Shown here piece after piece: positions 1,174-18,232 of a DNA stretch of 20,000 nt (positions are counted from its first letter, which is position 1; every line of letters starts with the position of its first letter). The stretch comes from an uncultured virus (IMG/VR IMGVR_UViG_3300041809_001460) (taxonomy: Duplodnaviria > Heunggongvirae > Uroviricota > Caudoviricetes). Where the stretch lies: IMG/VR virus record IMGVR_UViG_3300041809_001460; one strand, 5' to 3'. Under the pieces are notes generated by a model. That model was not told where the DNA came from. It made no database searches and was given only the letters and a program-made list of their open reading frames with translations. A program made the translations under genes and the position numbers.

Positions 1174-1201
1174 TTGACTTTACGCCCCAGCGCGGTAGAA
1201 T
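1174..1201 (+). promoter_or_regulatory. Sigma70-type promoter TTGACT-N16-TAGAAT
   Basis: Near-consensus -35 (1174-1179) and -10 (1196-1201) in an intergenic gap, with an A-rich upstream tract at 1153-1170. Confidence 0.65.
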
Positions 1202-1751: not shown

Positions 1752-1778
1752 CAGGAGCGCCCGGCGGCGCTCTACTGT
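1748..1778 (+). promoter_or_regulatory. TTGACA-N19-TACTGT with a dyad (GAGCGCC-cggc-GGCGCTC) in the spacer; promoter/operator or weak terminator hairpin
   Basis: TTGACA at 1748-1753, inverted repeat 1755-1761/1766-1772, TACTGT at 1773-1778, directly upstream of the sigma-like gene. Confidence 0.4.
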
Positions 1779-1813: not shown

Positions 1814-3460
1814 ATGCAAGTTTCTCCTCTAGTGGACAGCTGCCAACGCCTAATCCACCAAAAAGCCTTTCGTACCTACCATCGAATCGCACCGGAAAAC
1901 CGGCGCTGGATCGATCCTGAGGACGTGATACAGGACGGGATCATCGCTGCCTGGGAAGCCGAGCAGCGCTACAAGAAGAACCGCGGCGCTAAGTTTTCTA
2001 CCTATCTCTACAACGGTCTGGACATGCTGTTCTCGGGGAAGTATACCGTTCCTTTGAGACAGAAGAAGCGCCAAGCGTCGCTGCTGGAGCTGGACGCGCC
2101 GTTGCAGCTTGAGGACGGTAGTACCGCGCTGCACGAGTCCATTTCCGATGACGAGCATCCCAGCCAGTCCCCAGACAAAATGTTCGAGGCCATCTCCGGG
2201 GTTCTGCGGGTCTGCCATTCGATCCCGCCCTCAGCCCTGAGTTTCTTTCTGCAGGTGATCACCGACGAGACCGGACGGATACTGCGGCGGGACATTGTTG
2301 ACAAGAACAAACAGCTGCGAAGACGTAATGTAGACTTTATAGGATGTATACCTGAGACCTGCCGACGGTACAAAGTGACTCGGGAGGACTTGGCGCTGGT
2401 TATGGCGAGCGGTTATGCAAAGGGGATCGTGGTGGATGGAGTAGTGAAGTCCGCCGAGCACCTGGGAGAAGACGATGCCAAGGTGCTGGAGTGTCTTGAG
2501 TGCCGAGAACTGTTTTCATTGAACGATGCCCGGGCTGGGCGATACTCCGCTACGAGCCTTACTTGCTCGGCCTGTCTGCGCGGTCTACATCAGATCGGCC
2601 CGGATAACTCTTGCTTTGGACGGCGCAAGGTGGTAAAAAACGGTAGGACGGCAGCGGAGGGATATTCCGAAGCCGACGTCGAATGCAGATTGCATTGCCG
2701 CGACCGTGCAGCGTGCAGGAAGTATATCGAGGAAAGGGAGAAGGGTATGGCAGAGTCAGTTGACAACCTGGAACTCGAGTCGGAGCTGGAGGGGGTTGAC
2801 TTCAGCGACATCGAGGAAGAGGAAGAAGTTCCTGAAGTAGAACCTGAAACCAAAAAGCCCGCAACGTCGAAGAAGGCCGTGAAGCCGGCCGCGACGAAGA
2901 CCGTCAAGGCAGCAAAGGCTGCACCGGCGAAAGCCGCGAAACCAACCAAGACGGTGAAAGCAGCCCCGGCCAAGGCTGTGAAGGCAACCAAGACGGTGAA
3001 AGCGGCTAAGAACGTGAAGAAAGCCGCTCCGGCTAAGGCTGCTAAAGCAGCGCCGGCGAAGCGCCTGCGCGCTGAACCTGGCCATGCGAAGACCCCGCGG
3101 AATACCCCATCGGGGAAGATCGACCCCAAGGTGGCATTGAAGAAGGGGCTGATCAAGCTGGATGCGAAGGGACGCGATCTGCCTTACAAGGATGGGAGCG
3201 TGATGCGCTACTACCTTGAGCAGGCGTTGCAGCCCGGCGGAGTCAGCGAGGACTCGCTCGAGAAGTGGGCGATGAAGAACGGCTACGACCACCGCTATCA
3301 GCGTGCGGTTCTGGTTTCCGGGCAGAACGGCGGCACCGCCGTACGGCCCTACGCCACGACCCACACCTGGAAGGTGGAAGTGAAGAATGGCCGCATCCGC
3401 GTGTACGACCTGAAGCGGATCGCCTACTACAAGAAGATCGGGCGGCTGTTCAAGAAATAA
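1814..3460 (+). CDS. Sigma-70-family-like factor fused to a Cys-rich module, acidic linker, histone H1-like Lys/Ala/Pro tract and a C-terminal globular domain
   Basis: Region 2-like IDPEDVIQDGIIAAWEAEQRYKKNRGAKFSTYLY; region 3-like LELDAPLQLEDG...LHESISD; degenerate 4.2-like ETCRRYKVTREDL; CLEC/CSAC/CFG/CRLHC-x5-C; EEEEEVPEVEPE; KAAPAKAAK repeats. Start ATG 1814 follows AAGGTG. Confidence 0.75.
   Translation: MQVSPLVDSCQRLIHQKAFRTYHRIAPENRRWIDPEDVIQDGIIAAWEAEQRYKKNRGAKFSTYLYNGLDMLFSGKYTVPLRQKKRQASLLELDAPLQLEDGSTALHESISDDEHPSQSPDKMFEAISGVLRVCHSIPPSALSFFLQVITDETGRILRRDIVDKNKQLRRRNVDFIGCIPETCRRYKVTREDLALVMASGYAKGIVVDGVVKSAEHLGEDDAKVLECLECRELFSLNDARAGRYSATSLTCSACLRGLHQIGPDNSCFGRRKVVKNGRTAAEGYSEADVECRLHCRDRAACRKYIEEREKGMAESVDNLELESELEGVDFSDIEEEEEVPEVEPETKKPATSKKAVKPAATKTVKAAKAAPAKAAKPTKTVKAAPAKAVKATKTVKAAKNVKKAAPAKAAKAAPAKRLRAEPGHAKTPRNTPSGKIDPKVALKKGLIKLDAKGRDLPYKDGSVMRYYLEQALQPGGVSEDSLEKWAMKNGYDHRYQRAVLVSGQNGGTAVRPYATTHTWKVEVKNGRIRVYDLKRIAYYKKIGRLFKK
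2322..2345 (+). promoter_or_regulatory. Phage-type promoter motif copy 1 (intragenic): GACG-N10-TTTA-TAGGAT
   Basis: GACG 2322-2325, TTTA 2336-2339, TAGGAT 2340-2345; shares TTTATAGGATGTA with the copy at 9376. Confidence 0.55.
2851..3062 (+). repeat. Low-complexity coding repeat (K/A/P/T/V, histone H1-like)
   Basis: Repeated KAAPAK/TKTVK units; 19-nt direct repeat CAACCAAGACGGTGAAAGC at 2943-2961 and 2985-3003. Confidence 0.85.
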
Positions 3461-3481
3461 CTTTTCTCTCGGAGAGGGAAT

Positions 3482-3512
3482 AAACCGGCGTCGCTGACGC
3501 CGGTTTTCTTTT
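3482..3512 (+). terminator. Rho-independent terminator
   Basis: AAACCGGCGTC-gct-GACGCCGGTTT followed by TCTTTT; a weaker hairpin at 3462-3480 precedes it. Confidence 0.85.
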
Positions 3513-3519
3513 ATAGAAT
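3496..3519 (+). promoter_or_regulatory. Phage-type promoter motif copy 2: GACG-N10-TTTA-TAGAAT, 6 nt before ATG 3526
   Basis: Same spacing as the other copies; the downstream gene has no SD; overlaps the 3' arm of the terminator. Confidence 0.65.
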
Positions 3520-3525
3520 GAACTT

Positions 3526-4581
3526 ATGTCGGTGAAGGCGCGGTACAAAATTCTCTGTGGCGATGCGCTCGAGATGCTGAAAAAACTCCCCGACAATTCC
3601 ATCCAAGTCTGCGTGACCAGCCCGCCATACTACAACCTCCGCGACTATGGAACAGCGACCTGGATTGGCGGAGACCCGAAGTGCGGCCACAAGCAGAAGA
3701 TCGCCCGCTCGACAAAATCGAACTTGACCCAGCCGAAGAGCGGCAAGCGGAAGGTCGAAGAAGCTGGAAGGCCGTTTGGCTCTGTATGCCCGCTGTGCGG
3801 GGCGACGAGGACCGATCAGCAGATCGGCATCGAGGAGACTCCACAGCAATACATCGACCGGCTGGTGGCCGTCTTCGAGCAGGTGCGGCGCGTTCTCAAG
3901 CCGGGAGGGACCTGCTGGATCAACATCGGAGACAGCTACAACGGATTGGGCGCGCATTCTAATGAGCTGCGTGGGGCGAAAGCGCATCCGCTCGAACGTG
4001 AAGGGTGTTTGAAACAGGCTACGCATTTGGACGGCCTGAAGCCGAAGGACTTGATCGGCATTCCCTGGATGCTGGCCTTCGCTATGCGGAGCGCTGGATG
4101 GTACTGGCGGCAGGACATAGTCTGGTCGAAGACCTTCTGCCTGCCCAGCCCTATCAAGGATCGCTGCACCACTTCACATGAGCCAATCCTGTTTTTCTCG
4201 AAAAGCCGGTGTTACGAGTTCAATGCTGAGGCTATCGCCGAGCCTGCTGTGAGCGCGGGTACAACCTATGTAGTGAATGGCGAAGTGAAGACCATCGGTG
4301 AGATGAGGAATCGACGCAGTGTGTGGGCGATCGCTCCTTCATCGGTGCGAGATGAGCACTATGCACCGTTCCCGCAGGAGATTCCAAAGACCTGCATTCT
4401 CGCGGGCAGCGCCGAGAACGATATTATCCTGGACCCTTTCATGGGCAGCGGGACCACCGGGTTTGTAGCACTCAAACTCGGCCGCCGCTTTGTCGGCGTT
4501 GACCTTGATCCGCGCTCTGTGAAGATCGCTGAGAAGAGATTTGTGCGCGCCATCCCCAGCTTGGCCTGGGAGATGTACTAG
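3526..4581 (+). CDS. DNA amino-methyltransferase (N4-C/N6-A, beta-class order), orphan
   Basis: Catalytic VTSPPY near the N-terminus, SAM-binding [11 protein letters not shown] near the C-terminus, HYAPFP; Cys-containing insert CGH...CPLCG. Confidence 0.92.
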
Positions 4582-4584
4582 CTG

Positions 4585-4608
4585 GACGCGAAAGGAGTTT
4601 TATAAAGT
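4585..4608 (+). promoter_or_regulatory. Phage-type promoter motif copy 3: GACG-N10-TTTA-TAAAGT, 5 nt before ATG 4614
   Basis: GACG 4585-4588, TTTA 4599-4602, TAAAGT 4603-4608. Confidence 0.6.
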
Positions 4609-4613
4609 AGGGC

Positions 4614-5684
4614 ATGGCTACGCAGCAAGCGAAGATTCCTGCAAAAAACTTTCGCGCCCTGATCAGAGGAATTCTAAAGTTCCGGCCTTCTGCAGCAGCG
4701 CCAACGTCCCAGATCGTCAACTTCTCTGTGAACAACGGCCGCGCCCGCGCCTCTATTGGCGGGGGCCAGGGCACCGTGATTACGACCGGCGCTGTACTAG
4801 CGACACGGGAGGTCGAACCATTCGGCGCTTATTACAGCCACCTGGAGAGCTACGCTAATCTGCTGCCGGACGAGGGCGACGTGGAGTTGTCCAGGACCGA
4901 CGGGGATGTGCTGTTTTTGTGTGGGCCGAAACGCCGCCTCAAGCTGGCGCTGACCCCGGGCATCGTGATCCCGAGGCCCAAGGTGCCCGAGCCTTTCTTC
5001 GTGGCTGATGAGGAGACCGCGAAGATGCTGAAGTGGCTCGTGAGCGTAGCGGAGAAGGATGAGACCAAGCCGGACATGTGCTGCGTTTATCTGCGCAACG
5101 GCAGCGCCATGGCCGGGAATCAGAAGTGCATCGCCGTGGTGAAGCATGAGCGGCTGCCTGACGTGGAGTTGCCGCTGCCGCTGGCCGTATGCAATGTGCT
5201 CGAGCCGGGCGACAAGCTGGCCCGAACCGATAAGGGGCTGCTGCTGGTCAGCGGTGGATGCGTCTCTCAGATTCCGTATCTGATCCAGACCTTGCACTTC
5301 CCTGTAGGGACGATAGACCGCCTGGACAACGCTAAAGCTGAGAACTATGGGCACAGCACCGGCGACGCTATGAGAGTGGTGTTCAAGGAATCAGCTGATT
5401 GTGTGGCGCGGGTCCCGGGAGCGCAGGCCTGTGTGGTTCTGACCTTTGGCAAGGACGGAATCCAGGCTCGAGCGCAAAGCCAGAACGCGGCCTTCCGCAC
5501 GGTGCTGGATGGGACGGTTGAGAAGGACGGTGAATTGTGGCTGGAGCTGCCGGAAGCTGAAGAGGCTCTGGACCTGTTTGCTAATGGTGATGTGTTCTGC
5601 AAGAAGCTGTTGCCCAAGGGTGAGGCGATGCTCGAGGGGAACGGGGCGAAAGCCTTCTTCGCCCCCGTGCATCCGATCGGTTAA
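4614..5684 (+). CDS. Divergent DNA sliding clamp (DnaN/beta-clamp-like)
   Basis: 356 aa, alternating beta/alpha pattern. VAEKDETKPDMCCVYL...AMAGNQKCIAV resembles the beta-clamp 'A..DETRP.L.GV....VATDGHRLA' segment. A DnaX-like gene is in the same cluster. Confidence 0.6.
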   Translation: MATQQAKIPAKNFRALIRGILKFRPSAAAPTSQIVNFSVNNGRARASIGGGQGTVITTGAVLATREVEPFGAYYSHLESYANLLPDEGDVELSRTDGDVLFLCGPKRRLKLALTPGIVIPRPKVPEPFFVADEETAKMLKWLVSVAEKDETKPDMCCVYLRNGSAMAGNQKCIAVVKHERLPDVELPLPLAVCNVLEPGDKLARTDKGLLLVSGGCVSQIPYLIQTLHFPVGTIDRLDNAKAENYGHSTGDAMRVVFKESADCVARVPGAQACVVLTFGKDGIQARAQSQNAAFRTVLDGTVEKDGELWLELPEAEEALDLFANGDVFCKKLLPKGEAMLEGNGAKAFFAPVHPIG

Positions 5685-5794
5685 CCCGTCTTCTTCTTCG
5701 GCGCAGGCTTCGGAAGACGCACCGGCTTGGGAGGACGGAGCGCCACCGTAGCCTGGAGCTGTTTGATGTACCGACGCTCTGACCAAAAACTCAT
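5681..5794 (-). CDS. Putative 37-aa basic, Pro-rich antisense microprotein (MSFWSERRYIKQLQATVALRPPKPVRLPKPAPKKKTG)
   Basis: Below the ORF-track size cut-off. Its stop overlaps the clamp gene stop (TTAA 5681-5684), and a promoter -10 lies 6 nt upstream of the ATG. Confidence 0.55.
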   Translation of the reverse strand: MSFWSERRYIKQLQATVALRPPKPVRLPKPAPKKKTG

Positions 5795-5800
5795 AACCCG

Positions 5801-5829
5801 ACGGTAGCAAACTTTGAAATAGACGTCAA
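5801..5829 (-). promoter_or_regulatory. Sigma70-type promoter TTGACG-N17-TACCGT with extended TGn, leaderless geometry
   Basis: The minus strand reads TTGACG tctatttcaaagtttgc TACCGT cgggtt ATG. Confidence 0.55.
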
Positions 5830-5848
5830 ACTGAAGGGAGCACGAATC

Positions 5849-6100
5849 ATGGACGTAGAAGGTTCTTCCTATACCGATGAGGACGTGACGAAGGCATTTC
5901 GCGATGGTGAGCGCTGCTATCTCTGCGGCGGCACTTCATGGCTGGCTGGGCCTGAAGCTGGTCTAAGCCGGAACATTGAGTGCGAGGGATGTGGTGTTGA
6001 TCTCAACGTTTCACCGCTCTCCGTAGAGAGGATTGGCTGGAACCTGTCCGGCCGCTTCAATGATGACGGAACACTGAAACAGAAAATCCATGCCATTTGA
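5849..6100 (+). CDS. Small Zn-ribbon protein
   Basis: CYLC...CEGC; AAGGGAG SD upstream. Confidence 0.7.
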   Translation: MDVEGSSYTDEDVTKAFRDGERCYLCGGTSWLAGPEAGLSRNIECEGCGVDLNVSPLSVERIGWNLSGRFNDDGTLKQKIHAI

Positions 6101-8954
6101 AGAGCTAGTACAGGTTCGGACCGTCAAGCGAAAAAGCTTGAAGACGGACCCGCGCGGCTGCGAAGTGTGCCCGCTGAACGAGATCAAGGGAATTCAGAAG
6201 ATCATGGGCACCGTCGAGGGCAAGTCCATTCTCATTGTCGGGCAGAGCCCAGGCCAGAATGAGAACCGCGAGGGACAGGAATTCATTGGCGATGCCGGAG
6301 AATTTCTCTGGAACGAGCTGGACCTGGTGGGAATACACCGTGAGGACTGCGACATCTTCAACGTGGTTCGATGCCTGCCAGCGGACCAAATAGCCGGGAC
6401 CTACAGCTCGCGGCTTGTGATGCGGAGTCCGACGCCAGTCGAGATTCACTGCTGCTCTATCCACACTGAGGAAGCCCTGACGAAAACCAAGGCTCGGCAC
6501 ATCCTGATTCTGGGGCAGATCGCGCAGAAGGCATTTCTCAAGACCCGATCAGTCCCCGCGCAGAAGATTTTCTGGAGTGAGGAGCATCAAGCCAAAATCT
6601 ATTTAGCCGACCACCCAGCGTTCTTTGTGCGTGGCTACGGAGCCGGAGCCAGGATCGAGGCGTTCCGCGAGACCATGAAGCAGCTGGCTGCTGATTGGCA
6701 GAGCGCCGACGACGACACAGCGTCCGACAACTATCGCTACCTGCGGGAGCAGAAATACCATCTGATCCTAACTGAGGAGAGGGCCTGGAATGTCGGCCGT
6801 TTTCTACTCGCGTACGCTCGCAAAGGCATTCGCGTATCCGCCGACATCGAGTACGACATCATCGACGGAAAGAAGCTGATCTTCGCCGTCGGTTTCAGCC
6901 CCAAACCGGGCTTGTCTTTCATCTTCGTGTTCGACCATCCGAAGATCGCGCAGGCGCCACGCGACAGCAAGAAGTGCCGTGAGATGGCCTGGGCGCTGCT
7001 CAAGGCTGAGAACGTAAAGAAGGTGATGCACTTCGGGTGCTCCGACGTGAACGCGCTGCGAGAGGCCGGCGTCGAGACCAAGGGATACGACTGGGATACG
7101 AATTACAGCGAGTATCTTTACTATCCCGATGAGCACAACAAATACGGACTGGCGAACATCGCTGAGAGGAGATTCCAGCAATTCTCCGGTTACAAGTCCA
7201 TCATCTTTGACGATCTTTTTGACGCTGCGCCGCCGGGGGTCGAGCCCCCTGCCAATATCCGCAATGGCTCTTACGATGCTAAGGAAACGTGGTTGAAGCA
7301 GCACGACCTGTTTCACCTGACGAACCTGAGGCCAGACACGCTGCGCTTGTATACGGGAGGCGACGCCGATCTGACCAAGCGTATCGAGATCGACAACAAG
7401 AAGAAGGTGCCGCACGCGCTGGTGAAGCTGTACATGGACCTCGGGTTTTTGCTGCTGGCGATGGAGGACAACGGTCCCTGGTTCGACGAGTGGCAGCACC
7501 GGCAGGTGCATCGGCTCTGGCCGCATCTAGCTGCTGAGGCGCTCGAGAAGGTGCGGAAGATGATCGGAGACCCCGATTTCAACCCTGGCAGTTCCAAACA
7601 GGTCTACGACGCTATCTACCGGCGGCTCCATTTGCAATACCCGCTGCACAAGGGGAAGCCCAATACGCGAAAGCAGACCATGATGATGCTCTCGCGGGAG
7701 CACCCATTTCCGGGGGCTGTTCTTGCTTGGAGGAAGGCGAGTAAGGTTGTCTCCACCTACATTGACGGCCCCTATGAGGTAGCCAAGAGATTCGGTGGCC
7801 GTGTGAGGACTACGTGGTGGGCCACCGGCACAGCTGCCGGCCGGTTGTCGAGCAGCGGTGGTGATGAAGGGGGCATGAACCTGCAGAACCTGCACAAGGA
7901 CAAGCGTCTGCAGAATCTCTACGTGTCCGATAAACGCTGGCGGCGAGTATTCAACGCGATCAAGAGCATTCTTAAAACCGAGCCGCGGGTGATGTGGGAG
8001 CAGCTGATCGAGCAGTGGGTTCGCGAGAATATGCCCGATCTCAAGACCTTTCTGATTCTGGACTACGGGCAGATTGAAGTGCGTGTGGCCGCGCAGGTGT
8101 CGGGCGACGAGAACCTGATCGCGGATTGCGCCTCAGCCGACATCCACAGCACAGTCGGATCGCGTATGACCGGTTGGAGTGTCGTGAAGATCAAACACGA
8201 CAACAAAACCCGTACCTTGACCAAGAACGTCCACTTCGGGATTATGTTCGGCATCGACCGCCGGAACCTGTTTGAGTTCATCAAGGCTATGGACCCTGAT
8301 TTCAACGGCACCGAGGAAGAGGTGTTCGCGCAGTTCGACCGCTACTTCGAGCGGTATACCGGCATCGCCAGATACATCGAATCGCAGCGGGAGCTGGCGC
8401 AGGATCAGGGGTATGTGGAGACGATATTCGGATTGCACCGAGCGCTGAACCTCACCAGCTTCCGCAAGGACTTCGATGACGAGGACGGTGATAGCGACGA
8501 CTACATTGACGCAGCTGGTGAGAGGCAGACTTCGTGGCGCAATCAATGTATCAATACGCCGGTGCAGGGATCAGCCCACCAGCTGCTCGAGTGCGGGATG
8601 GTGAATATGGTGAGGAAGCCCCAAGAGTATACGGTCCTGGGAACGCCATCGATGGACGTACACGACGCACTCTACTTTATTGTGAACGTGCTGGAGCTGC
8701 AGGAGGCTTACCGCAAGGCGCGGTATTTGATGGAAGTGGATTCCCTCGCAACCGTGAAGAGCGACTTTCCTGAGATCGATTGGAAAGTGCCGATCGTGGT
8801 TGAGGCTGAGGCTGGGCTGAGGCTGGGCACGCGTGTGGAGCTGAAGGATGACCAGTTCACCGTGGGAGGCTATTTGCTGGATTGGTACAACGTGACTAAG
8901 AAGCAAATCCTTGATATGAAGAAGCAGCTGGATGAGCTGCCGGGGGCTGCATGA
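6090..8954 (+). CDS. Family A DNA polymerase with N-terminal family-4 uracil-DNA-glycosylase-like domain and 3'-5' exonuclease
   Basis: UDG4-like: CEVC, IVGQSPG..E..EG.EFIG.AG, NVVRC.P, EIHCC, HPA. Exonuclease: ADIEYD, YTGGD. Polymerase: GRLSS, NLQN, motif A DYGQIEVR, motif B RTLTKNVHFGIMFG, NTPVQGSA, motif C VHDA. Confidence 0.95.
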   Translation: MPFEELVQVRTVKRKSLKTDPRGCEVCPLNEIKGIQKIMGTVEGKSILIVGQSPGQNENREGQEFIGDAGEFLWNELDLVGIHREDCDIFNVVRCLPADQIAGTYSSRLVMRSPTPVEIHCCSIHTEEALTKTKARHILILGQIAQKAFLKTRSVPAQKIFWSEEHQAKIYLADHPAFFVRGYGAGARIEAFRETMKQLAADWQSADDDTASDNYRYLREQKYHLILTEERAWNVGRFLLAYARKGIRVSADIEYDIIDGKKLIFAVGFSPKPGLSFIFVFDHPKIAQAPRDSKKCREMAWALLKAENVKKVMHFGCSDVNALREAGVETKGYDWDTNYSEYLYYPDEHNKYGLANIAERRFQQFSGYKSIIFDDLFDAAPPGVEPPANIRNGSYDAKETWLKQHDLFHLTNLRPDTLRLYTGGDADLTKRIEIDNKKKVPHALVKLYMDLGFLLLAMEDNGPWFDEWQHRQVHRLWPHLAAEALEKVRKMIGDPDFNPGSSKQVYDAIYRRLHLQYPLHKGKPNTRKQTMMMLSREHPFPGAVLAWRKASKVVSTYIDGPYEVAKRFGGRVRTTWWATGTAAGRLSSSGGDEGGMNLQNLHKDKRLQNLYVSDKRWRRVFNAIKSILKTEPRVMWEQLIEQWVRENMPDLKTFLILDYGQIEVRVAAQVSGDENLIADCASADIHSTVGSRMTGWSVVKIKHDNKTRTLTKNVHFGIMFGIDRRNLFEFIKAMDPDFNGTEEEVFAQFDRYFERYTGIARYIESQRELAQDQGYVETIFGLHRALNLTSFRKDFDDEDGDSDDYIDAAGERQTSWRNQCINTPVQGSAHQLLECGMVNMVRKPQEYTVLGTPSMDVHDALYFIVNVLELQEAYRKARYLMEVDSLATVKSDFPEIDWKVPIVVEAEAGLRLGTRVELKDDQFTVGGYLLDWYNVTKKQILDMKKQLDELPGAA

Positions 8955-9373
8955 TCGACCGCTTCGAGGGTGAGAACAGGTTTCTCTCCAACTTTTATCC
9001 GTCGCCCGTGATGTATCAGGGGATTGTCTACCCCTCCGTGGAGTGTGCTTTTCAGGCTGCGAAGACTTTGGACACCAAGGTGCGCGCTGAGTTCGCGCAG
9101 CTTACAGCAGCGCAGGCCAAGAGCCATGGGCGCAGGGTCAAGCTACGTGAGGATTGGGAGAGCGTGAAGTTAGAGATTATGGAGATACTGCTGCGACGTA
9201 AGTTCAAGGACTCGACGCTGAGAGCTAAGCTGCTCGCGACCGGCCAGGAACAGCTGATTGAAGGCAACTGGTGGCATGACACCTTTTGGGGGGTCTGCAA
9301 CGGCGTGGGCGAGAACCACCTCGGCCGACTGCTGATGCGGGTGCGAGACGAGATTCGAGTTGACGGCCGCTGA
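8951..9373 (+). CDS. NADAR (YbiA-like) ADP-ribosylhydrolase family protein
   Basis: FLSNFY, YPSVE.AFQAAK, AK..GR, LREDWE, RKF, LLATG, LIEGN.WHD.FWG, GENHLGRLLM.VR. Confidence 0.93.
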   Translation: MIDRFEGENRFLSNFYPSPVMYQGIVYPSVECAFQAAKTLDTKVRAEFAQLTAAQAKSHGRRVKLREDWESVKLEIMEILLRRKFKDSTLRAKLLATGQEQLIEGNWWHDTFWGVCNGVGENHLGRLLMRVRDEIRVDGR

Positions 9374-9385
9374 ATTTTATAGGAT
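9362..9385 (+). promoter_or_regulatory. Phage-type promoter motif copy 4: GACG-N10-TTTA-TAGGAT, 6 nt before ATG 9392
   Basis: GACG 9362-9365, TTTA 9376-9379, TAGGAT 9380-9385. Confidence 0.65.
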
Positions 9386-9391
9386 GTAATG

Positions 9392-9937
9392 ATGGCGATT
9401 ACCGCTGACGTGCTAATCAAACGACTGGCCTTGGTGGACGAGAACGTTCTTGTCGAGGCCGCGCAGCAGCCGCTGCGATTTGTCGATGCTGCCAGGTATC
9501 GTGTCGCCGCGATGAAGAACCGAGCACAGGTGACCGCCGAGCTTGGGTATTTGAAGAGCCGTCTTGCGATGGCCATCCGGGCTAAGGGGAATGAGGCTGG
9601 AGAGCGCGTCACCGACAAGGCTTGTGCTGAGCGTGTGGAGAAGCATCGACTGGTACGGGCGCTGAGCGCGAAGCTGGACCGAGCCTTGGAGCTTGAGGAG
9701 TTTGCTCGGCTGATCATGGAGGCCTACAGGATGCGCCGTGACGCGATTCGAGTGATTGCCGAGACCCAGATCGCTGAGGGTGTGAAAGAGGGGCATGAGG
9801 TTGATCGGATCGAGCAACGCCGCCGACTACATACAGCTGCACGGAATTTGGAGCAGAAACGGTCGAGAATCGAAGCCCCGGGCAACGATGACCCGGACAT
9901 TGCCGACGGCGTGGAGCAGGAAGAGAACTTGAGATGA
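9392..9937 (+). CDS. UvsY-like helical recombination mediator protein
   Basis: LALVDENVLVEAAQQPLRF... followed by long amphipathic helices; located upstream of the SSB and RecA genes. Start is ATG 9389 or 9392. Confidence 0.5.
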   Translation: MAITADVLIKRLALVDENVLVEAAQQPLRFVDAARYRVAAMKNRAQVTAELGYLKSRLAMAIRAKGNEAGERVTDKACAERVEKHRLVRALSAKLDRALELEEFARLIMEAYRMRRDAIRVIAETQIAEGVKEGHEVDRIEQRRRLHTAARNLEQKRSRIEAPGNDDPDIADGVEQEENLR

Positions 9938-10266
9938 GCGACAAGCCGCTAAGTAAACTCGGCATTTCGGCTATTACCGTGAGCGTGGAGATAGCTGACA
10001 AGACCTACGGCTCCGGCGAGTCGTTGTTTATGTCGGTAGGATCGCGGCTGCCTGAATCCACGCCGGGTCTACCATTGACCGCTGATGAAGCCATTGACGA
10101 CGGCATCGATAAATACCTCGTGGCCTGGCAGACGCTGCTTCAGGCTGCGTTGGCGGAAGGAAGGATTTCTCAGGGCGATTATAAGAGGCAGACGGTTAAC
10201 ACATTGCATAGAGTAAAGCAGGTTCGCGAACTCTATCGTCGGATCGTGAAGGCGGAAGCCGTATGA
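9934..10266 (+). CDS. Hypothetical protein
   Basis: ATGA-coupled to the upstream gene; fits the operon. Confidence 0.7.
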   Translation: MSDKPLSKLGISAITVSVEIADKTYGSGESLFMSVGSRLPESTPGLPLTADEAIDDGIDKYLVAWQTLLQAALAEGRISQGDYKRQTVNTLHRVKQVRELYRRIVKAEAV

Positions 10267-10296
10267 TGTGCGGTATCTCAACTGGAGAAGAAGAAA

Positions 10297-11430
10297 ATGG
10301 CGATCGACGAAAGAGAGTACGCGCGAAAGCGCGCCGAACAGCGGCAGCAGAGTTCCTGGTACAAGCTGAAGGAAGGTGACAACTGCTTCCGCATTCTGCC
10401 TACCCCGCCGTCCGATGATGTGCAGACGAACTGGTTTGAGTACGCTGTGCATCGTGAGGTCGGACCTAAGAAGACAACCGTGCGCTGTGGCATCGACCCT
10501 GTGAGCGGCGAAGGTCAATGCTGGATTTGCGACAAGCTGATTCCGCATCTGAAAGCGAAGAAGCTGGAGCAGCGGGCGACGGCCCTGGCGCCTCGGGCCA
10601 ACGTGCTGATCCAAGTGGCTAAGGTGGATGAGAATGGGAAGATGACCGGGCCTTATCTCTTTACCCCAGCCAAGACCCTGGCCGACCAGCTGCTGGCGTC
10701 GATCTTCGGATCGCGGAAGCGCAGCTATATTGATCCCGTTCGGGGATACAACATCAATGTGAGCCGCACCGGCACCGGAAGGCTGGACACCAAATACGGA
10801 ATGCTCGAGCCTGACCAGGACTCGACAGCCGTTCCCAAGACATTGCTGGCCAAGGTGCAGCCCTTCAGTGAGCTGAAGGAAGTGCCTGTTTACTCGCAGG
10901 CCAAGCAGCAGGCCGCTTACAGCGGCAAGGATGTGGCTGAGGAGCCGGAACAAGATGAAGAAGAGCCACCCCGCCGCCGCGCCCGTGTTGCTGCGCCTGT
11001 CGAAGAGGAAGAGGTTGCGGACGCTGGTCTGGATGATGACGAGCTAGCCACCGACGACGTCGGCGACGAGGACCTGGTGGACGACCCGGACCCTGATGCT
11101 GAAGAGGAGCCGGCGCCACCCAGACGGGCGGCGAAGCCTGCTGCGAAGCCGGCCGCAAGGCCAGCTGCGCGGAGAGCCGCCCCGGTGGAAGAGGAAGAGC
11201 CGGAGGCGGAACTGGCCGGCGACGATGAAGAGCTGCTCGAGGACGATCTACCGGATGAGATCGACCTCAACGACCTCGGCGACGAGCCGCCGCTCGAAGA
11301 AGAGGAAGAGGCGCCTGCTCCGAAGCCACGGGCCGCAGCTAAGCCCGCGGCGCGGCCAGCAGCGAAACCTGCGGCACGGCCTGCCAGCAAGGTAGCGGTG
11401 CCCGCACCGAAGCCGAAGGCGCGGCGATAA
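10297..11430 (+). CDS. Single-stranded DNA-binding protein (T4 gp32-like, His/Cys Zn site) with long acidic/basic disordered tail
   Basis: WYKLKEG.N.FRILP, VH...C...CWIC, GYNINVSRTGTG.DTKY; GGAG SD. Confidence 0.75.
   Translation: MAIDEREYARKRAEQRQQSSWYKLKEGDNCFRILPTPPSDDVQTNWFEYAVHREVGPKKTTVRCGIDPVSGEGQCWICDKLIPHLKAKKLEQRATALAPRANVLIQVAKVDENGKMTGPYLFTPAKTLADQLLASIFGSRKRSYIDPVRGYNINVSRTGTGRLDTKYGMLEPDQDSTAVPKTLLAKVQPFSELKEVPVYSQAKQQAAYSGKDVAEEPEQDEEEPPRRRARVAAPVEEEEVADAGLDDDELATDDVGDEDLVDDPDPDAEEEPAPPRRAAKPAAKPAARPAARRAAPVEEEEPEAELAGDDEELLEDDLPDEIDLNDLGDEPPLEEEEEAPAPKPRAAAKPAARPAAKPAARPASKVAVPAPKPKARR
10939..11427 (+). repeat. Low-complexity coding region with alternating D/E blocks and AAKP/AARP repeats
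   Basis: AAPVEEEE occurs twice; two AAKPAA(K/R)PAA blocks. Confidence 0.8.
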
Positions 11431-11447
11431 CCGATCAAACTGTGAGT

Positions 11448-11467
11448 GGGGCCCGAACCTGGGCCCC
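11448..11467 (+). other. Intergenic GC hairpin (GGGGCCC-gaacct-GGGCCCC); weak terminator or mRNA-stability element
   Basis: Perfect 7-bp stem between the SSB and RecA genes, followed only by TT. Confidence 0.5.
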
Positions 11468-11485
11468 TTGCATCTAGGAGCAGAT

Positions 11486-12541
11486 ATGGCTGTGCCCAAA
11501 CCCAAAGCTAAGAAGGTGGCGAAGCAGAGCGAGCGTGAGATGCAGGCCATCGAAGACGCCGTTGACAAGGCCGGCGAAGAGTTTGATGAAGAGCAAGAGA
11601 CCGAGGACCTTGTAGAGGACGTTGGGATACAGATCAACGGCGACGAAATTCAGGCTGCGGTGCGAAAGATGATGAAGCTGTCGCTGTTTGAGCCGCCGGA
11701 GAATTTCTGGTTGAACACAGGATCGCCGGAACTGAACTCCGTTTTCGGCTCACGCAAGCTGGGCATTCCCTACGGCAAGGTGATCGAGGTAGCTGGGCCC
11801 GAACACTGTGGAAAGACGCTAATTGCCAATGTGATGATGGGCATGGCGCAGCGTGATGGAGCCGCGGCGGGATATATCGATTTGGAAGAGAGCCGCGACG
11901 CCAACTGGGCAACCAAGCTGGGTGTGAATTGGGAGGCTGTGACAAAAATCTATCCTGAGCTGGTGAAGCAGAAAAGCGGCCCGCCGATGCTGTTGAGCGC
12001 CGAGCAGATTTGCAATCAGGCCGAGCAGGCCATGTATCTGCTGCACAAGGCCGGGGCCAGAAAGCAGTTCTGGTTTCTGGACTCTATCGCCATGCTGATA
12101 CCAGCGACGCAGATGGAAGCTGGGCTGACCGGAATCAATATGCGGACGAAGCTGGCCCGAGCCGACTTTCTAGCTACACTGATGCCGAGATGGGCTGGCC
12201 TGGCTGCGAACTACAACGCGTTGATGCTGGTGTCCAACCAGCTTCGAGCTAAGATCGGCTCCTTTGTGATGGGCGATCCCGACGAGACCACCGGCGGCAG
12301 GGCCCTGCGTCATGTAGCCTCGATCAGAGTCCGCGGCAGGCGCTTAAAGGGTGGAAGACTGAAGCAGGGAACCGCTATAGTAGGATTAGCTGGTGTTTTC
12401 AGGAACACCAAGAACAAGTCGGGTGGAGGGTCCGTAGAGGGATGCGAAGCGGCCTTCAAAGTCCGTTGGGACAGGCCCAAAGCATCCGTCAAATTTATGC
12501 CCGTCGCGGAGCTGAAAGCCGAGATGGGGGAGGAGAAATAA
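11486..12541 (+). CDS. recA: RecA/UvsX-like recombinase with charged N-terminal extension
   Basis: TGSPELN, GIPYGKVIEVAGPEHCGKT (Walker A), YIDLEE, FLDSIA (Walker B), NQLRAKIG, TTGGRALRH.AS.R, KNK; AGGAG SD before ATG 11486. Confidence 0.92.
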   Translation: MAVPKPKAKKVAKQSEREMQAIEDAVDKAGEEFDEEQETEDLVEDVGIQINGDEIQAAVRKMMKLSLFEPPENFWLNTGSPELNSVFGSRKLGIPYGKVIEVAGPEHCGKTLIANVMMGMAQRDGAAAGYIDLEESRDANWATKLGVNWEAVTKIYPELVKQKSGPPMLLSAEQICNQAEQAMYLLHKAGARKQFWFLDSIAMLIPATQMEAGLTGINMRTKLARADFLATLMPRWAGLAANYNALMLVSNQLRAKIGSFVMGDPDETTGGRALRHVASIRVRGRRLKGGRLKQGTAIVGLAGVFRNTKNKSGGGSVEGCEAAFKVRWDRPKASVKFMPVAELKAEMGEEK

Positions 12542-13024
12542 ATGCCGCCGAAGAAAACGCAAGATACGCCTGAAAGCGTAGCCGGGCCTACGGCCGATGA
12601 ACTGAGGATTGAGCAGCTGCAGGATGACCTGGAGGCTGCCAACGGCACTATCGCCCTACTGCGCCAAGAGGTGAGTGACATTGGCACGAGCCTGGACGCG
12701 CAGAAGAGATTACGTGCTACTGAGCGTGAGACACATCAAATGGAGCTGGCCAGGGCACAGGATACGATCAACGCTCAACTGACCCGCGTACAGACCGGCA
12801 TTATCAGCAAGAAGGCCGCGACGCCCGAGGAGGCTGTCGGCAACATCATCGCCTTCTTCGCTGCTGTGGCTCTGGGCGGGCCTGCGGCTAGTCTGCGGCA
12901 CGCCGTGCATGAGATTGCGGAAGGGTTGGACCGGGAAGGCAAAGCGAAATTCAGGGAGTACGCGATGCGGCTGCGTAGTGCCGCTGAGGCTGCTGAGCAG
13001 GAGACCGCGACGATCGGCCTTTGA
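12542..13024 (+). CDS. Coiled-coil hypothetical protein
   Basis: Heptad-like IEQLQDDLEAANGTIALLRQEV; GGAGGAG SD. Confidence 0.7.
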   Translation: MPPKKTQDTPESVAGPTADELRIEQLQDDLEAANGTIALLRQEVSDIGTSLDAQKRLRATERETHQMELARAQDTINAQLTRVQTGIISKKAATPEEAVGNIIAFFAAVALGGPAASLRHAVHEIAEGLDREGKAKFREYAMRLRSAAEAAEQETATIGL

Positions 13025-13036
13025 TGGGGATGACCT

Positions 13037-13288
13037 ATGAAATTCGACACGCTGGAGAAAGCGCGACGTGTTTTGCCGTCCTTCGCCTTTCCACTTCTTG
13101 AGAAGAGCGGCGATCTGGGTGCCCTGCGTCGTTGTGTGAGGATCGAGAGGGACCGGATCAAGGTTGAGGTGCTGGAGGCCATGGCCGCGACTCACAGCGG
13201 TTATTATGCTACCCCTGAGATCAAAGAGATGCAGCGGAGGCATCTGCAGTTAGATAATTTCTTGAACATAACCGGAGGGACGTGGTGA
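13037..13288 (+). CDS. Hypothetical protein
   Basis: Fits operon packing; GGGGA upstream. Confidence 0.6.
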   Translation: MKFDTLEKARRVLPSFAFPLLEKSGDLGALRRCVRIERDRIKVEVLEAMAATHSGYYATPEIKEMQRRHLQLDNFLNITGGTW

Positions 13289-13608
13289 AGCTGGTTTGTG
13301 GAGTTGTGGACGGGAACGGGGTGAGGAGAATCCTCGCCGCTGAGAGCACGCCTACGCTCCAGAACATCGACGACCTGGCGCTGCTGGCTCCTGAAGGGTC
13401 ATGTGACTGGGGGCCGGAAGCGGAGGCATGTGAGAGTGAGACTACAGCCAAAATTATTCTCTCTTGCGTGGCTAAGTGGGATATTGCTACTGTCTATGCT
13501 CGGCGGTACGCCGAGGATGTGGTGAGCAAGCTGGGCACCGACCAGATGTGGATTTTGCCTCTTGAGGAGATCGAGCAATGGCTGACGGAGAACAGAAAAG
13601 TGGCGTAG
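13282..13608 (+). CDS. Hypothetical protein
   Basis: GGAGG SD; GTG start at 13282 or 13285 overlapping the previous stop. Confidence 0.6.
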   Translation: MVKLVCGVVDGNGVRRILAAESTPTLQNIDDLALLAPEGSCDWGPEAEACESETTAKIILSCVAKWDIATVYARRYAEDVVSKLGTDQMWILPLEEIEQWLTENRKVA

Positions 13609-14639
13609 AAGACAGTCAGCTCTCGCTCTCCGCTCGCCCCAAAACTCTGGATGGCCTAATCGGACAAGAGAGAACTGTACGGGCCATTCGAGGCCATATC
13701 AAGACCGGCCGCTATCCTAAAGCGTGGCTGTTCTACGGCCCTAAGGGCACCGGCAAAACGACCGCCGCACGAATCATATCCCTGTCTTATCAGTGTGAAC
13801 ATCAGCAGCACTTCGGGCGCCCCTGCAACGCCTGTCGCGCTTTGTCTCCGATGGGGATTTTAGAGGGCGTATGGGGAGCCTTTCCTGTAGTCGAGATTGA
13901 TGGAGCTACAATTTCGACGAAGGAAGAAATGACCGATGCCATGTACGCCTGCCGTTCCGGCATCATGGGGGCTGGGAGATACCGCATCTACATCGTGAAC
14001 GAGGTGCAGCGATGCAGCAAGGCCTGCCTCGACATCTTCCTGTCGCGCCTCGAGGACACGCCGCGCAGCACTGTTTTTATTTTCACCACCACCGACCCGT
14101 CGGAACTTTCTGAGCCCTTCCGTTCCCGCTGTCAGTGTTACGAATTCAGGGAGCTGGCGACCGACGACGTTGAGAAGCTGGTGGAGCGGTTGCTGAAGAG
14201 AATCAGCAGCGATCTGCCTGTGGATCGGCTGACCATGGCGCTGGCCGATGCCAAGGTGTCATCACCGCGGCTGGTCGCGCAGGCCGTGGAGAAGTACGCC
14301 GCTGGTTGTGACCCCGAAGAGGCAGCGACCGTGACCGGAGCGCCGGAGCTGGACATTCTAGGGCTGTCGAAGGCCATTACCCACGGAGACTGGATCGGGG
14401 CATCGAGGTATCTGCAGATGATTAAGAGCGGCCAGGCCCGCGCTCTGCGGATGATGATGATGAAGTATCTGCGTGAGCAGCTGCTTGAGTCATCGGAGAT
14501 CGGGCCCAGAGCCGACAACATTGCGATGGCCATCGACTTGATGACGTCGGTAGCCAACGCTGAGGATTCGCTGGTCTATGCAGCAATATGCAGCAGCGCC
14601 TACAGCCTTTGTAAACTTTTCGCGAACTATACGGTGTGA
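13578..14639 (+). CDS. DnaX (DNA Pol III gamma/tau)-like clamp loader AAA+ ATPase
   Basis: ARPKTLDGLIGQE, WLFYGPKGTGKTTAARI, C...PCNAC, VVEIDGA, IYIVNEVQ, LEDTP, VFIFTTT, RSRCQ. Confidence 0.88.
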   Translation: MADGEQKSGVEDSQLSLSARPKTLDGLIGQERTVRAIRGHIKTGRYPKAWLFYGPKGTGKTTAARIISLSYQCEHQQHFGRPCNACRALSPMGILEGVWGAFPVVEIDGATISTKEEMTDAMYACRSGIMGAGRYRIYIVNEVQRCSKACLDIFLSRLEDTPRSTVFIFTTTDPSELSEPFRSRCQCYEFRELATDDVEKLVERLLKRISSDLPVDRLTMALADAKVSSPRLVAQAVEKYAAGCDPEEAATVTGAPELDILGLSKAITHGDWIGASRYLQMIKSGQARALRMMMMKYLREQLLESSEIGPRADNIAMAIDLMTSVANAEDSLVYAAICSSAYSLCKLFANYTV

Positions 14640-14647
14640 GGTGGGAG

Positions 14648-14974
14648 ATGAAAACTAGAGTCTACATCGCCGGTCCTTATACGAAGGGAGATGCAGCGGT
14701 TAACGTGAGGAACGCATTTGAGGCGGCAACCCGTTTGGCGGACCTGGGATTTGCTCCGTATGTTCCGCACACCACGCATTTCTGGCACATGATGTTTCCA
14801 CACCCGTATGAATTTTGGCTTGCCTTGGATGATGAATTCTTGTCGGTATGCGATGTGCTTCTGCGGCTTCCGGGAGAGTCGAACGGCGCTGACAAAGAGG
14901 TTGAAACCGCTTTCCAACGTGGGATTCCTGTCTACCGTAGTATCGAAGAATTGATTGGGCATTTTACTTTATGA
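14648..14974 (+). CDS. DUF4406 / nucleoside 2-deoxyribosyltransferase-like protein
   Basis: VYIAGPYT, L...GF.PY.PH, CDVLLRLPGESNGADKE...A...GIPV. Confidence 0.8.
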   Translation: MKTRVYIAGPYTKGDAAVNVRNAFEAATRLADLGFAPYVPHTTHFWHMMFPHPYEFWLALDDEFLSVCDVLLRLPGESNGADKEVETAFQRGIPVYRSIEELIGHFTL

Positions 14975-14984
14975 GGAGAACGAT

Positions 14985-15188
14985 ATGGATTGTAAAGACT
15001 GTAAGTGGGCTGCGAGAGCCAAGAGAGCGCCGGATTATCTGCGCTGCCATCTGAACCCTCCGCAGCTCGTGAGCATCAAGAACGTTGAGGGGAACCGCAA
15101 GGTGACGGGATTCTTCCCCATTGTCAACGAAGGAGACTTCTGCTCCTATTGGGAGGCACGACCCGATGCGCCTGCTGCTAACTTCTGA
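14985..15188 (+). CDS. Small Cys-rich phage protein
   Basis: CKDC...CHLNPP...FPIV...DFCSYW; GAGGAG SD. Confidence 0.75.
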   Translation: MDCKDCKWAARAKRAPDYLRCHLNPPQLVSIKNVEGNRKVTGFFPIVNEGDFCSYWEARPDAPAANF

Positions 15189-18009
15189 TTGGCAGGCCGA
15201 CTTCAGCAATTTGCAGGAGTGCGAGACCTCACTGGAAGAGCTGCTTGAGGCCGCAGCCAGGTACAAGCCTGCGGCGATCATTCACTGCGGCGACCTGAAG
15301 GAAGCCTATTCGCCGATCGACACCGAGGTGGTGAAGTTCTGCGTTCGAGCAGTGCGGCGCGTCTGCGAGGCCGGATACCGCTTCATTATTCTGCTCGGGA
15401 ACCATGACCGGGTAAGCCAGTCGGCTGAGTCGAAGGACTGGCTGGATGTGATGCAGGCGGCTGGGGCCGAGGTCGTTACCCGCCCCGCGGTCAAAAAGGT
15501 GGGGAATTTGGTTCTGGCGTGTCTTCCCTACATGGCGCTAGGCCAAGACACCATCCGGGCTGCGCAGGCTCTTCTACGGTCAACCCAGAGGGCCCCAGGG
15601 GCCAAAATTCTGCTATTCCACACGGAATTGGCGGGTTCTGAGCTGAATTCAGCTGGCCGGGTAGGGGTCGGCCCAACGGCCGAGGAGCTGGGATTCAGCC
15701 AGTACACAGCCTGCTTCGGCGGCCATATCCACAAGCACCAGAAAATAGACCAAAACGGCTGGTATGTCGGAGCACCGTTTTGCCAGGATTGGGGCGACGC
15801 CAACTCCAGCCGCGGGCATCTGCTGGTGGAGGTATTCGATGACGCGAGAAAGTGGGTTAAGGTCACGCAGCTGCGGACCAAGATTCCGCATTGGTATGAC
15901 GTGGAGTACCTCGAGAAGAACGGAATCATTCCCGAGCCTGGAGCCTATGTCCGCTCGCGAGTGAATGTGACCAGCCGCAAGATCACCGATCAGATGCGTG
16001 AGGAAGAAGAGCGGATCAGGAAAGCCTACGGTGATGTGCGGATTCATACCGTGCCTGAGCTGGTGGATGATGCGCCAGCGGAGATGGTGCTCAAGGGAGC
16101 TACCGATCGAGAGAAGATTGAGCAGTACGTGGCCGCGACCATTACCGAGCAGCATCGCTTCGAGCCGATGCAGGCTGTGAGTTATATGACTGCGAGGCTG
16201 GCCGGGACCAAGGAGGCTGCGCAGGGTGGCGAGCTGTATTTCAACCGTGTTGAGGCTGACAATGTTTTGGTATTCGAGCATGTGGCGATGCGCCTTGCGA
16301 AGCTTGGCCTCGTGCTGATTCGTGGTGAGAATCAGGATTGGCCTGGAAGATCAAACGGCACCGGCAAGAGTTCGCTGCTGAGTCTGACGCCGATCGCCAT
16401 GTTTGGGACCGTACCGAATAAAAAGCAGCGCTCCGACGCCTGGGCCTACGAACGCAACGAGGATCAGGCCTCGGTGAAGCTGACGTTGATGGACGCTGCC
16501 AAGCGCAAGATCGAAATCAGCCGCGGCCGCCGCCCCCACTTTATCTCCCTGCGTATCGATGGCGAGGACAAGTCGGCCGGGATCAGGGGCCTGGGCAAGA
16601 ATGAGACCCAAGGGCTGATCGAGCGCGCCACCGGCTACGACATACAGATGCTGATGAACGCCGTGTACATCGACCAGGCCGTGGCCAACGGTTTTGTATT
16701 CGGCACACCCGCCGGTCGCATGGACCTGATCGCGCGGTTCCAGAACCTCGAGCGCTTCGAGGAAGGACTGAAGCGCGTGAATGAGGATTACAAGAAGTGG
16801 GAGATGCGAGCTGCTTTGTTCTCAAACGAGATTGAGACCTTCGAGAGTGAGATCGCCAATCTTCAAGCTGAGCTGAAGGAGCTGGCAGAGCAGGCTGAGT
16901 CGGACTGGGCTGAGCAACTGCGGCATGAGCAATCGAATCTGGACAACCTGATCGAAGAGCACGCGGCTATAGCTGGTGTAGCTATTACCTATGAGGAGCT
17001 GCAGCGATCGCTCGACGATCTGGAAAAGGACCGGGAAAACATCAATAACGAAATTACGCTAGCCTCCCGGCAGGCTGGGATTATGGGAGACCGTCTGGGG
17101 CGTGGGCGCAAGCTGATTGAGTCGGGGAAGTGCCCGACGTGCCTGCAGCCGTCGACCGGAGCCGGAGAGAAGATTGTAGCCCAGGCCGAGAGGCAGCTGC
17201 TCGAGGCGCAGGATCAAGAGGAAAAGCGGAAGCGCGACCGCGATCTGGTGAAGGATCGCATCGATGCCGCAAGGAAGAAATTGACCGCCTACAACACGAG
17301 GAGGGACGATCTCAATGCCCAGATCAAGCGTGCTCGTGAGCGCCTGGGAGACCTTGAGAAGGCCGCTGCCGATGAAGCTGAGAGAAACGCTGGCCGCGAA
17401 GCTAAGATTCGACGCAAGAGCCTTCAGCTAGGGTTGCAGAAGCGTTATCGAAGAGCGGCGATCGCAGCGCGGCAGGAGATGAGCGTCGGAGTGGAGATGC
17501 TGGAATACGTGAAGAAAGCCTTCCAGCGCAGCGGCATTCCGCTTTATCTTTCTGTGTCTCTGTGTCCGCTGCTCAACAAGGCCGCCGAGGAGTATAGCGA
17601 AATCTTTACCGACGGCAATCTCAAGGTAAGTTTTCGTGTCGAGGACGGTGAATTTGCTGTGGATGTGGTGAACCCGGTTGGGTCATCGACCGTGGAGGGA
17701 CAGAGCGAGGGAGAATCGGCCATGGCGGGACTCATCGCGGCTTTTGCTTTGCGCGAGGCCGCGCCGAAGACCAACATGCTGATCCTGGATGAGCCTGGAA
17801 CGAAGCTGGACCCTGAGGGGTGCAAGCAGTTTGCGCGTGGAATTCTACGGCTCAAGGACCACTTCGAGACTATTCTGCTGGTCACGCACAGCCCCTACAT
17901 TTCGTCGCTGCTTTCCGGTGAGACGGTCTATACTGTGAAAAAGAGAAACGGACGTAGCCGTTTGTTTCTATCATCAAGCAGGGAGAGTGTGAGAAATGAG
18001 CAAGGTTAA
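15166..18009 (+). CDS. Fused SbcD(Mre11)-like nuclease and SbcC(Rad50)-like ABC ATPase
   Basis: Phosphoesterase motifs SDWQ, GDL, GNHD, FH, GHIH. ATPase motifs NGTGKSS, YIDQ, coiled coil with CPTC hook, QSEGE signature, LILDE, KLD, VTH. No stop between the halves; GGGAGG SD before ATG 15166. Confidence 0.92.
17951..17974 (+). promoter_or_regulatory. Phage-type promoter motif copy 5: GACG-N10-TTTC-TATCAT upstream of the cold-shock gene
   Basis: GACG 17951-17954, TTTC 17965-17968, TATCAT 17969-17974; AGGGAG SD and ATG 17996 follow. Confidence 0.5.
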
Positions 18010-18232
18010 CGACAGCCAAAGAGTACGCGGCAAGGTGAAGTGGTTCAACGCCGCCAAGGGTTTCGGATTCATTGGCCCCGACGACGGCAGCGAGGATGTG
18101 TTTGTTCACTACTCAGCCATCAGCGGTGAGGGGTTCAAGTCCCTTAACGAGCATGACGAGGTGGAGTACGCTACGCAGCCTTCCAAGAGCAAACCAGGCA
18201 AGTTCGAGGCGCTGGACGTCGTGAAGGTGTAA
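17996..18232 (+). CDS. Cold-shock domain protein (CspA family)
   Basis: [15 protein letters not shown] (RNP1), DVFVHYSAI (RNP2), GFKSL.E...VEY. Confidence 0.95.

Follow-up and report, generated by a model that had tools for sequence, protein, structure and literature searches.

Which factor directs RNA polymerase to the replication genes of a phage that encodes a sigma-like protein of its own? The question is raised by a 20,000-nucleotide stretch of DNA, hereafter the window, from the uncultured virus IMGVR_UViG_3300041809_001460 (IMG/VR; Caudoviricetes), whose genes form a replication module entirely on the + strand and in which a promoter-like motif, GACG placed 14 nucleotides (nt) before a TAnnnT hexamer, recurs around a gene for a sigma-like fusion protein (1814-3460, +). 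From the comparisons gathered here, it appears probable that the host core enzyme, equipped with the phage sigma, reads the -10 hexamer, a block at -18 to -13 and the GACG box, and that these sites make up the middle promoter class of a family of 107-125 kb phages.

The GACG motif and the genes it precedes

The sequence-only reading had proposed five copies of GACG-N10-TTT(A/C)-TAnn(A/G)T, all of which are present on the + strand exactly as it described them, and the full pattern matches five times in the window against a mean of 0.01 and a maximum of 1 in 200 shuffles. As this pattern had been fitted after the fact, independent tests were made. The looser GACG-N14-TAnnnT has nine matches on the + strand and none on the - strand, against 0-2 matches at each of the spacers 10-13 and 15-20, and these nine compare with a mean of 2.0 and a maximum of 6 in a synonymous-codon shuffle that keeps the proteins (300 runs). 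Besides, a weight matrix trained on 30 sites of the relatives G002 and G005 only places the five sites at ranks 1-5 in the window (14.3-18.9 bits), the best minus-strand score being 9.4 bits. The list of copies was nonetheless one short, a sixth site at 10191-10214 having been overlooked. Three further loose matches are probably due to chance, those at 8484 and 8655 falling in the polymerase reading frame as Asp...Tyr codons with low scores and that at 17411 having no counterpart among the G002 or G005 sites. The nearest record (G001/G003), which overlaps the window up to about 15,960 and extends 7.8 kb further upstream, holds no matrix score above 11.1 bits in that extension.

Genome-wide tests were run on three relatives, namely G002 (118.9 kb, complete), G005 (106.8 kb, 91%) and the distant, syntenic phage G012 (125 kb), and several contigs of 2-11 kb were also available; the genes of these relatives were called with a simple script, so that their start positions are approximate. 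An unguided search over 383 TAnnnT hexamers upstream of called genes returned GACG at -30 as the top 4-mer (35/383 cases, p 1.7e-25), as it also did separately in G002 (12/98) and in G005 (17/199). Relative to the synonymous null, loose matches number 18 against 7.1 in G002 and 27 against 10.0 in G005, and strict matches, counted in the same genomes from which the strict pattern was derived, 13 against 0.2 and 11 against 0.3, with none on the minus strand. Genome-wide enrichment of the motif, which had been suggested as a check, is borne out in G002 and G005. In G013, G014 and G015, which have a weak sigma-2 match or few genes in common, no GACG excess was seen.

Across 33 upstream sites, the consensus comprises GACG at -30 to -27, A/T-T-T at -18 to -16, T(C/A) at -14/-13 and TAnn(A/G)T followed by G, with 8 nt between GACG and the (A)TT-N-T(C/A) block. 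The TTT(A/C) element of the original pattern was over-fitted, the full pattern being found at only three sites in G002 and one in G005. No information content is present at -36 to -31 across these sites, i.e. there is no -35 box. The housekeeping sigma-70 class shares the TAnnnT hexamer but has a spacer of 16-18 nt (PMC11598898, in the part available), as against 14 nt here, and none of the six window sites is among the sigma-70-type promoter calls.

One of the six window sites (2322-2345) lies inside the sigma gene itself. The site at 3496-3519 ends 6 nt before the ATG of a DNA methyltransferase gene (3526-4581) and is kept after the sigma gene in G002, L017 and L021, each with different downstream genes; it overlaps a terminator-like hairpin (3482-3506), the candidate end of the sigma transcript, and the same overlap is seen in G002. 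The site at 4585-4608 ends 5 nt before the ATG of a clamp-like gene (4614-5684) and heads the clamp, DNA polymerase and NADAR genes, with counterparts in G002, G005, L016 and L021. The site at 9362-9385 lies 6 nt before the ATG at 9392, whose product was formerly labelled UvsY-like, a name that the searches did not support as the protein matched only PHROGs of unknown function; counterparts exist in G002, G005 and L017, and another motif occupies the equivalent place in G012. The sixth site, 10191-10214, stands 82 nt before a gene (10297-11430) that we take to be like a single-stranded DNA-binding protein from its position, no family match having been found, and heads the RecA-like, clamp-loader and SbcCD genes, with counterparts in G002, G005 and L017. 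The last, 17951-17974, lies in the final codons of SbcCD and overlaps a hairpin at 17946-17963; as anticipated, it precedes the cold-shock gene csp (17996-18232, +), the ATG of which follows the hexamer by 21 nt, and it has counterparts in G002 and G005 and another motif at the equivalent place in G012.

In the relatives, sites recur at eight orthologous positions, including where the downstream gene was replaced. They precede replication and accessory genes and are rare in the virion module, which was located by portal, head-tail adaptor and minor head matches and makes up 36% of the G002 genome and 29% of the G005 genome, with 1 of the 24 strict sites. Kept positions, strand bias, virion depletion and the existence of separate early and late motifs together give good support to the replication-phase promoter class that had been proposed. 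Regarding leaderless geometry, the starts at 3526, 4614 and 9392 do follow the hexamer by 5-6 nt without a properly spaced Shine-Dalgarno (SD) sequence, and at 9 of the 30 sites the hexamer is followed at 5-7 nt by an in-frame ATG or GTG; as a property of the whole class it does not hold, since nine others have a called start at 12-40 nt and 12 have none within 40 nt. Of note, one strong GACG-class site of G002 (8871-8894), scoring 22.6 bits, falls within a large virion-region gene, and the next called start is 900 nt further on. At the helicase gene of G002 (32244-32273), the -10 box and leaderless spacing are kept and GACG at -30 is lost, the G005 orthologue having GACG.

The sigma-like fusion and the site inside its gene

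The fusion gene encodes 548 amino acids (aa) with a Pfam Sigma70_r2 match (E 1.4e-9), organised as a sigma-70-family part (aa 1 to about 196), a Cys-rich zinc finger (about 197-311), an acidic then Lys/Ala-rich linker (312-430) and a C-terminal domain (431-548). This is a true fusion, as 19 full-length homologues of 440-579 aa were found with Sigma70_r2 in 19/19, and a profile search collected 81 clusters at E up to 1e-30. In the structural model (pLDDT confidence score 86.8), residues 4-81 fold as sigma region 2, with Z 9.4 and a root-mean-square deviation (rmsd) of 1.7 over 70 residues against 1sig, and D37 and Q40, presumably engaged in binding the core enzyme, are invariant in 69 sequences. 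Compared with bacterial sigmas by profile, aa 31-149 match with a probability of 97%. The match spans a region-3.2-like linker and takes in the initial helices of the well-predicted helical domain behind it; when the whole model is aligned to sigmas, the rmsd exceeds 10. In both G002 and G005, the fusion is the only convincing sigma-70-family match, six-frame translation included. The C-terminal domain has no solved-structure match and the zinc finger no match in the Atlas; as the whole-model fold searches were dominated by the sigma part, both domains are only lightly covered. The zinc-finger domain also occurs alone, as proteins of 85-140 aa, in many other records. No relative of the fusion was found in genome_contigs, nor any tblastn match in GenBank phages for any of three segments.

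The comparison with G012, the sigma of which is 27% identical to that of the fusion, bears on the link between motif and reader. GACG sites are there at chance level (7 against a null of 8.4), and another motif, (A/T)TCCTG-TAnnAT, is found nine times on the coding strand against a null of 0.15, a count made in the genome from which the motif was derived, and never in the virion module. It stands at five GACG-equivalent positions, namely the helicase, the gap after the helicase, the sigma gene end, the counterpart of the gene labelled UvsY-like and after SbcCD. This swap of motif at kept positions favours a reader encoded by the phage, of which the sigma is one candidate. The proposal that the fusion reads the motif is thus supported indirectly, by the sigma-2 fold, by its being the sole sigma gene and by the swap in G012, and the part assigned to it could alternatively be played by an activator of the MotA type. 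A tree of the family, in which six GACG carriers fall on one side of a supported branch, was set aside as evidence of co-evolution, since kin share labels, three of the rows scored as not seen rest partly on contigs of 5-7 kb, and proteins were matched to loci by eye.

The site at 2322-2345 has a predicted transcription start near 2352, upstream of the part coding for the zinc finger, and is kept in G002, G005, L016, L017 and L018. The surrounding DNA is 48-67% identical in the majority of pairs, rising to 83-90% within a close trio, which points to about four independent lineages, and the Ile codon at the hexamer is ATA in 6/6, a codon accounting for 8-12% of Ile codons. In G012, the sigma open reading frame (ORF) of 192 aa ends at the equivalent promoter, and an ORF of its own, opening with a GTG 6 nt after the hexamer, encodes the zinc finger (region 89641-90600, reversed); the basic linker and C-terminal domain have no match in that genome. 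Given this arrangement, site 2322 is best read as a promoter of the downstream domains that has been retained within a fused gene. A candidate internal-start product would run from 2747 to 3460 (+) and comprise 237 aa, i.e. the acidic and Lys/Ala-rich stretches and the C-terminal domain: a purine-rich SD-like stretch precedes ATG 2747, and 63 of 69 family members have a Met 3-28 aa beyond their zinc finger. Starting instead at the in-frame ATG 2402, the product could include the zinc finger as well.

Four wetland metatranscriptomes each contribute one RNA contig over the rear portion of the gene (2092-3468, 2196-3471, 2375-3291 and 2379-3472). The last two start at 2375 and 2379, 23-27 nt past the predicted transcription start, and three of the four stop at 3468-3472, just before the hairpin at 3482. 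As assembled contigs carry no information on strand, start or level, they amount to a weak hint.

Three promoter classes and their possible readers

Besides the GACG class, two other sets of candidate promoters frame the gene programme. A host-type class, AATAAAGAC(G)-TTG(A/C)(C/A)-16/17-hexamer, is represented once in the window, once in G002 and four times in G005. The window copy is a candidate early promoter at 1164-1201 (+), with AATAAAGACG, TTGACT (1174), 16 nt and TAGAAT; a second candidate host-type promoter at 1748-1778 (+) has TTGACA just upstream of the sigma gene, with TCTACT at 17 nt and TACTGT at 19 nt, so that two such elements precede that gene, and TTGACA-17-TCTACT is also found upstream of the sigma gene in L012 and L016. 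The element at 1748-1778 has an atypical -10 box and in the window its spacer carries a short inverted repeat, GCGCC...GGCGC; it is possibly an autoregulated promoter. RNA contigs from two studies both end at 1173, which adjoins the early promoter's -35 box rather than the start predicted for it. Four host-type early promoters of G005 (16037, 43404, 56833 and 91691) also hold an overlapping GACT-N14-TAT(A/G)GT near-match and may be dual early/middle promoters. The virion module has its own motif, AG(C/T)T(T/C)GCTGTTG, with 9/9 copies inside the module (G002 2927, 6193, 20140 and 108624; G005 50871, 54070, 57546, 66327 and 69383), all nine having a (T/C)AnnnT hexamer 19-21 nt downstream where chance would give about 7% each. 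Several of these candidate late copies end 6 nt before an ATG, portal genes included, and none was found in the window or in G012.

The GACG sites fit the middle promoters of a three-step cascade, the timing of each class being read from gene content. The host polymerase with its housekeeping sigma would transcribe early genes, the sigma fusion included, from TTGACA-16/17-TAnnnT promoters. The sigma part of the fusion, judging from its fold and conserved residues, would then bind the host core enzyme; its region 2 would melt TAnn(A/G)T and, at -18 to -13, read the (A)TT-N-T(C/A) element. GACG at -30 to -27, which is nearer by about 3 bp than an ordinary -35 box, would be read by the fused zinc finger or by the diverged helical domain that ends the sigma part. 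Transcription would thereby be switched to genes for replication, recombination and accessory functions, roughly one site in three producing leaderless mRNAs, and the promoter inside the sigma gene would give a shorter transcript, devoid of the sigma domains, from which the zinc finger, the basic C-terminal part or both could be made. A third motif would serve the virion genes.

The main competitor of this phage-sigma mechanism is an appropriation of the T4 kind, in which the housekeeping sigma of the host recognises TAnnnT, GACG at -30 is the target of a separate phage activator, and the fusion would serve another class, e.g. the late GCTGTTG promoters. In T4, according to the accessible part of PMC2988021, the MotA box WWWTGCTTtA lies 12 +/- 1 bp from the -10 box and the host sigma is used; in both systems a sigma-70-type -10 box is combined with a box near -30 that replaces the -35 element, before replication and recombination genes. 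The plain -10 box and the centring of the upstream box near -29, as for MotA, speak for such an activator, as do the lack of a sigma-4 match in the fusion, the change of the late motif in G012 and the many small proteins without known family that G002 and G005 have in common. The box is however a 4-bp GACG at 14 nt with a -18 to -13 block and without TGCTT, and the phage has its own sigma, the only one found per genome. This sigma gene lies behind candidate host-type promoters, as expected of a middle factor such as SPO1 gp28 (PMC13401047, in part), and the -18 to -13 block is conserved, is altered in G012 and differs from the host-type TG extension. No match to the MotA or AsiA families was found among 25 proteins of the window, 34 larger proteins of the relatives and 25 shared small ones, and the 25 scanned out of 35 shared small non-virion proteins have no transcription-regulator domain at the Pfam cut-off. 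A separate activator is on balance rather unlikely, though it deserves to be kept in mind.

Adoption by the phage of a host promoter type, read by the housekeeping or an alternative sigma, can draw on the fact that leaderless TAnnnT promoters are common in several phyla and that the host is known as a lead only. Against it, GACG-Nk-TAnnnT has no peak at a spacer of 14 in 452 kb of Acidobacteriota loci (12 matches; range 11-25), where TTGAC peaks at 17, no clear peak at 14 appears in 44 other bacterial loci, and five acidobacterial genomes give 4 strict matches against 7 for the control; in addition, the phages retain separate canonical TTGACA promoters and the GACG motif is swapped in G012. 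We regard this explanation as very unlikely, and the suggestion that the class is specific to the phage gains from the absence of any motif excess in the candidate hosts. An origin other than promoter function, i.e. by-products of terminator hairpins with T tracts, coding constraint or operators, would account for the real hairpin overlaps at 3496 and 17951 and at a few sites of the relatives, and for loose matches such as 8655 created by in-frame Asp...Tyr codons. Most of the 30 folded sites nevertheless form a weak hairpin or none, stable hairpins with T tracts being confined to 3482-3506 and a minority of others; sites within genes use rare codons (ATA), the spacing to the -10 hexamer is fixed, the orientation is one-stranded and starts lie 5-7 nt downstream at 9 of 30 sites, which makes this origin extremely improbable.

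Several observations weigh against a phage sigma reading GACG. Residues 115-215 taken alone match the sigma-4 profile with a probability of 0.2% in the very part expected to read the box. The covariation rests on one whole outgroup genome in which all proteins have diverged, the late motif also differs and the host is possibly another, and both the strict GACG pattern and the G012 motif were counted where they had been derived. L019 and L020, which carry a related fusion, are without the internal site and have GATG-15-TATAAT before the clamp gene. Two of the RNA contigs, those from 2092 and 2196, cross site 2322, and contig ends near 4614, 9392, 10221 and 17981 are inconsistent. The late pattern was itself read off virion regions, its location there being partly circular.

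Phage sigma regulons are already known as a kind, and promoters of phage sigmas have been predicted from genomes before (PMC4331800, in the part available). In SPO1, as reported in the accessible text of PMC13401047, early genes use the host sigma, the phage sigma gp28 then redirects the core enzyme to middle genes, and gp28 needs a modular helper, gp27, with a disordered region. The present system differs in that its sigma, the single one found, continues into a zinc finger, a low-complexity charged linker and a C-terminal domain, and in that the -10 box resembles that of the host. For phiEco32 gp36 and 7-11 gp47, the available part of PMC8948821 reports experiments in which promoter positions are kept and the motif changes with the sigma, the motifs being tAATGTAtA and GTAAtg-(16)-aCTA, late genes included. 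The likeness extends to one sigma per genome and to a single-block versus a two-part motif, which mirrors G012 versus the GACG group; the present class differs in avoiding virion genes, in its 14-nt spacer and in a multi-domain fusion with an internal promoter. Neither the motif nor its geometry (14 nt to a host-like -10 box), nor the multi-domain sigma fusion or its internal promoter, was found in the literature searched, subscription papers and supplements lying outside it.

Genomic setting and significance

The window genes comprise an exonuclease, the sigma-like gene, the DNA methyltransferase, the clamp-like gene, a family A polymerase, RecA-like, clamp-loader, SbcCD and cold-shock genes. 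The polymerase (6090-8954, +) has an N-terminal uracil-DNA-glycosylase-like domain, and SbcCD (15166-18009, +) is one ORF in which an SbcD-like nuclease is fused to an SbcC-like ATPase, an arrangement also present in G002, G005 and G012. An Rfam search of the window gave no match. In G005, 29 tRNA genes and a permuted tmRNA are found close to the sigma gene region or immediately downstream of it (L031 15711-19934, L032 19-1146, L027 15503-15875), and G002 has none. As for the host, Acidobacteriota account for 36 of the 80 best cold-shock-protein loci, which also include Pedobacter and others, and are put forward as a lead only; when 401 genomes of one acidobacterial class were searched at the DNA level, with two candidates scored per genome, the matches listed were mainly to the cold-shock gene. 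A small ORF at 1479-1751 (window 1518-1705) matches two places in G378, a genome of that class, at 73% DNA identity, which gives a further, weak lead.

Phage sigmas with known promoters are few, and the predicted sigma-promoter pair described here would add one with a host-like -10 box, no -35 box and a 14-nt spacer. The natural variant pair formed by the GACG group and G012 allows specificity residues to be mapped by swaps, and a sigma-promoter pair ignored by the host sigma could serve as an orthogonal expression system. More tentatively, the fusion may represent an undescribed, widespread sigma family that carries its own helper modules (zinc finger, charged disordered linker and C-terminal domain), reads a compact promoter with GACG at -30 and, from the internal copy of that promoter in its coding sequence, transcribes its own back half. 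The sigma-free product would act next, either by activating the late AGYTYGCTGTTG-19/21-YAnnnT promoters or by helping to compact DNA or form condensates in the manner of SPO1 gp27; this remains a possible rather than a favoured extension and, if true, one gene would encode two tiers of a three-tier cascade. For the family itself, the analysis would provide an early/middle/late map of uncultured phages whose sequences occur in wetland metatranscriptomes, together with an example of a sigma gene that keeps such a promoter within its own coding sequence.

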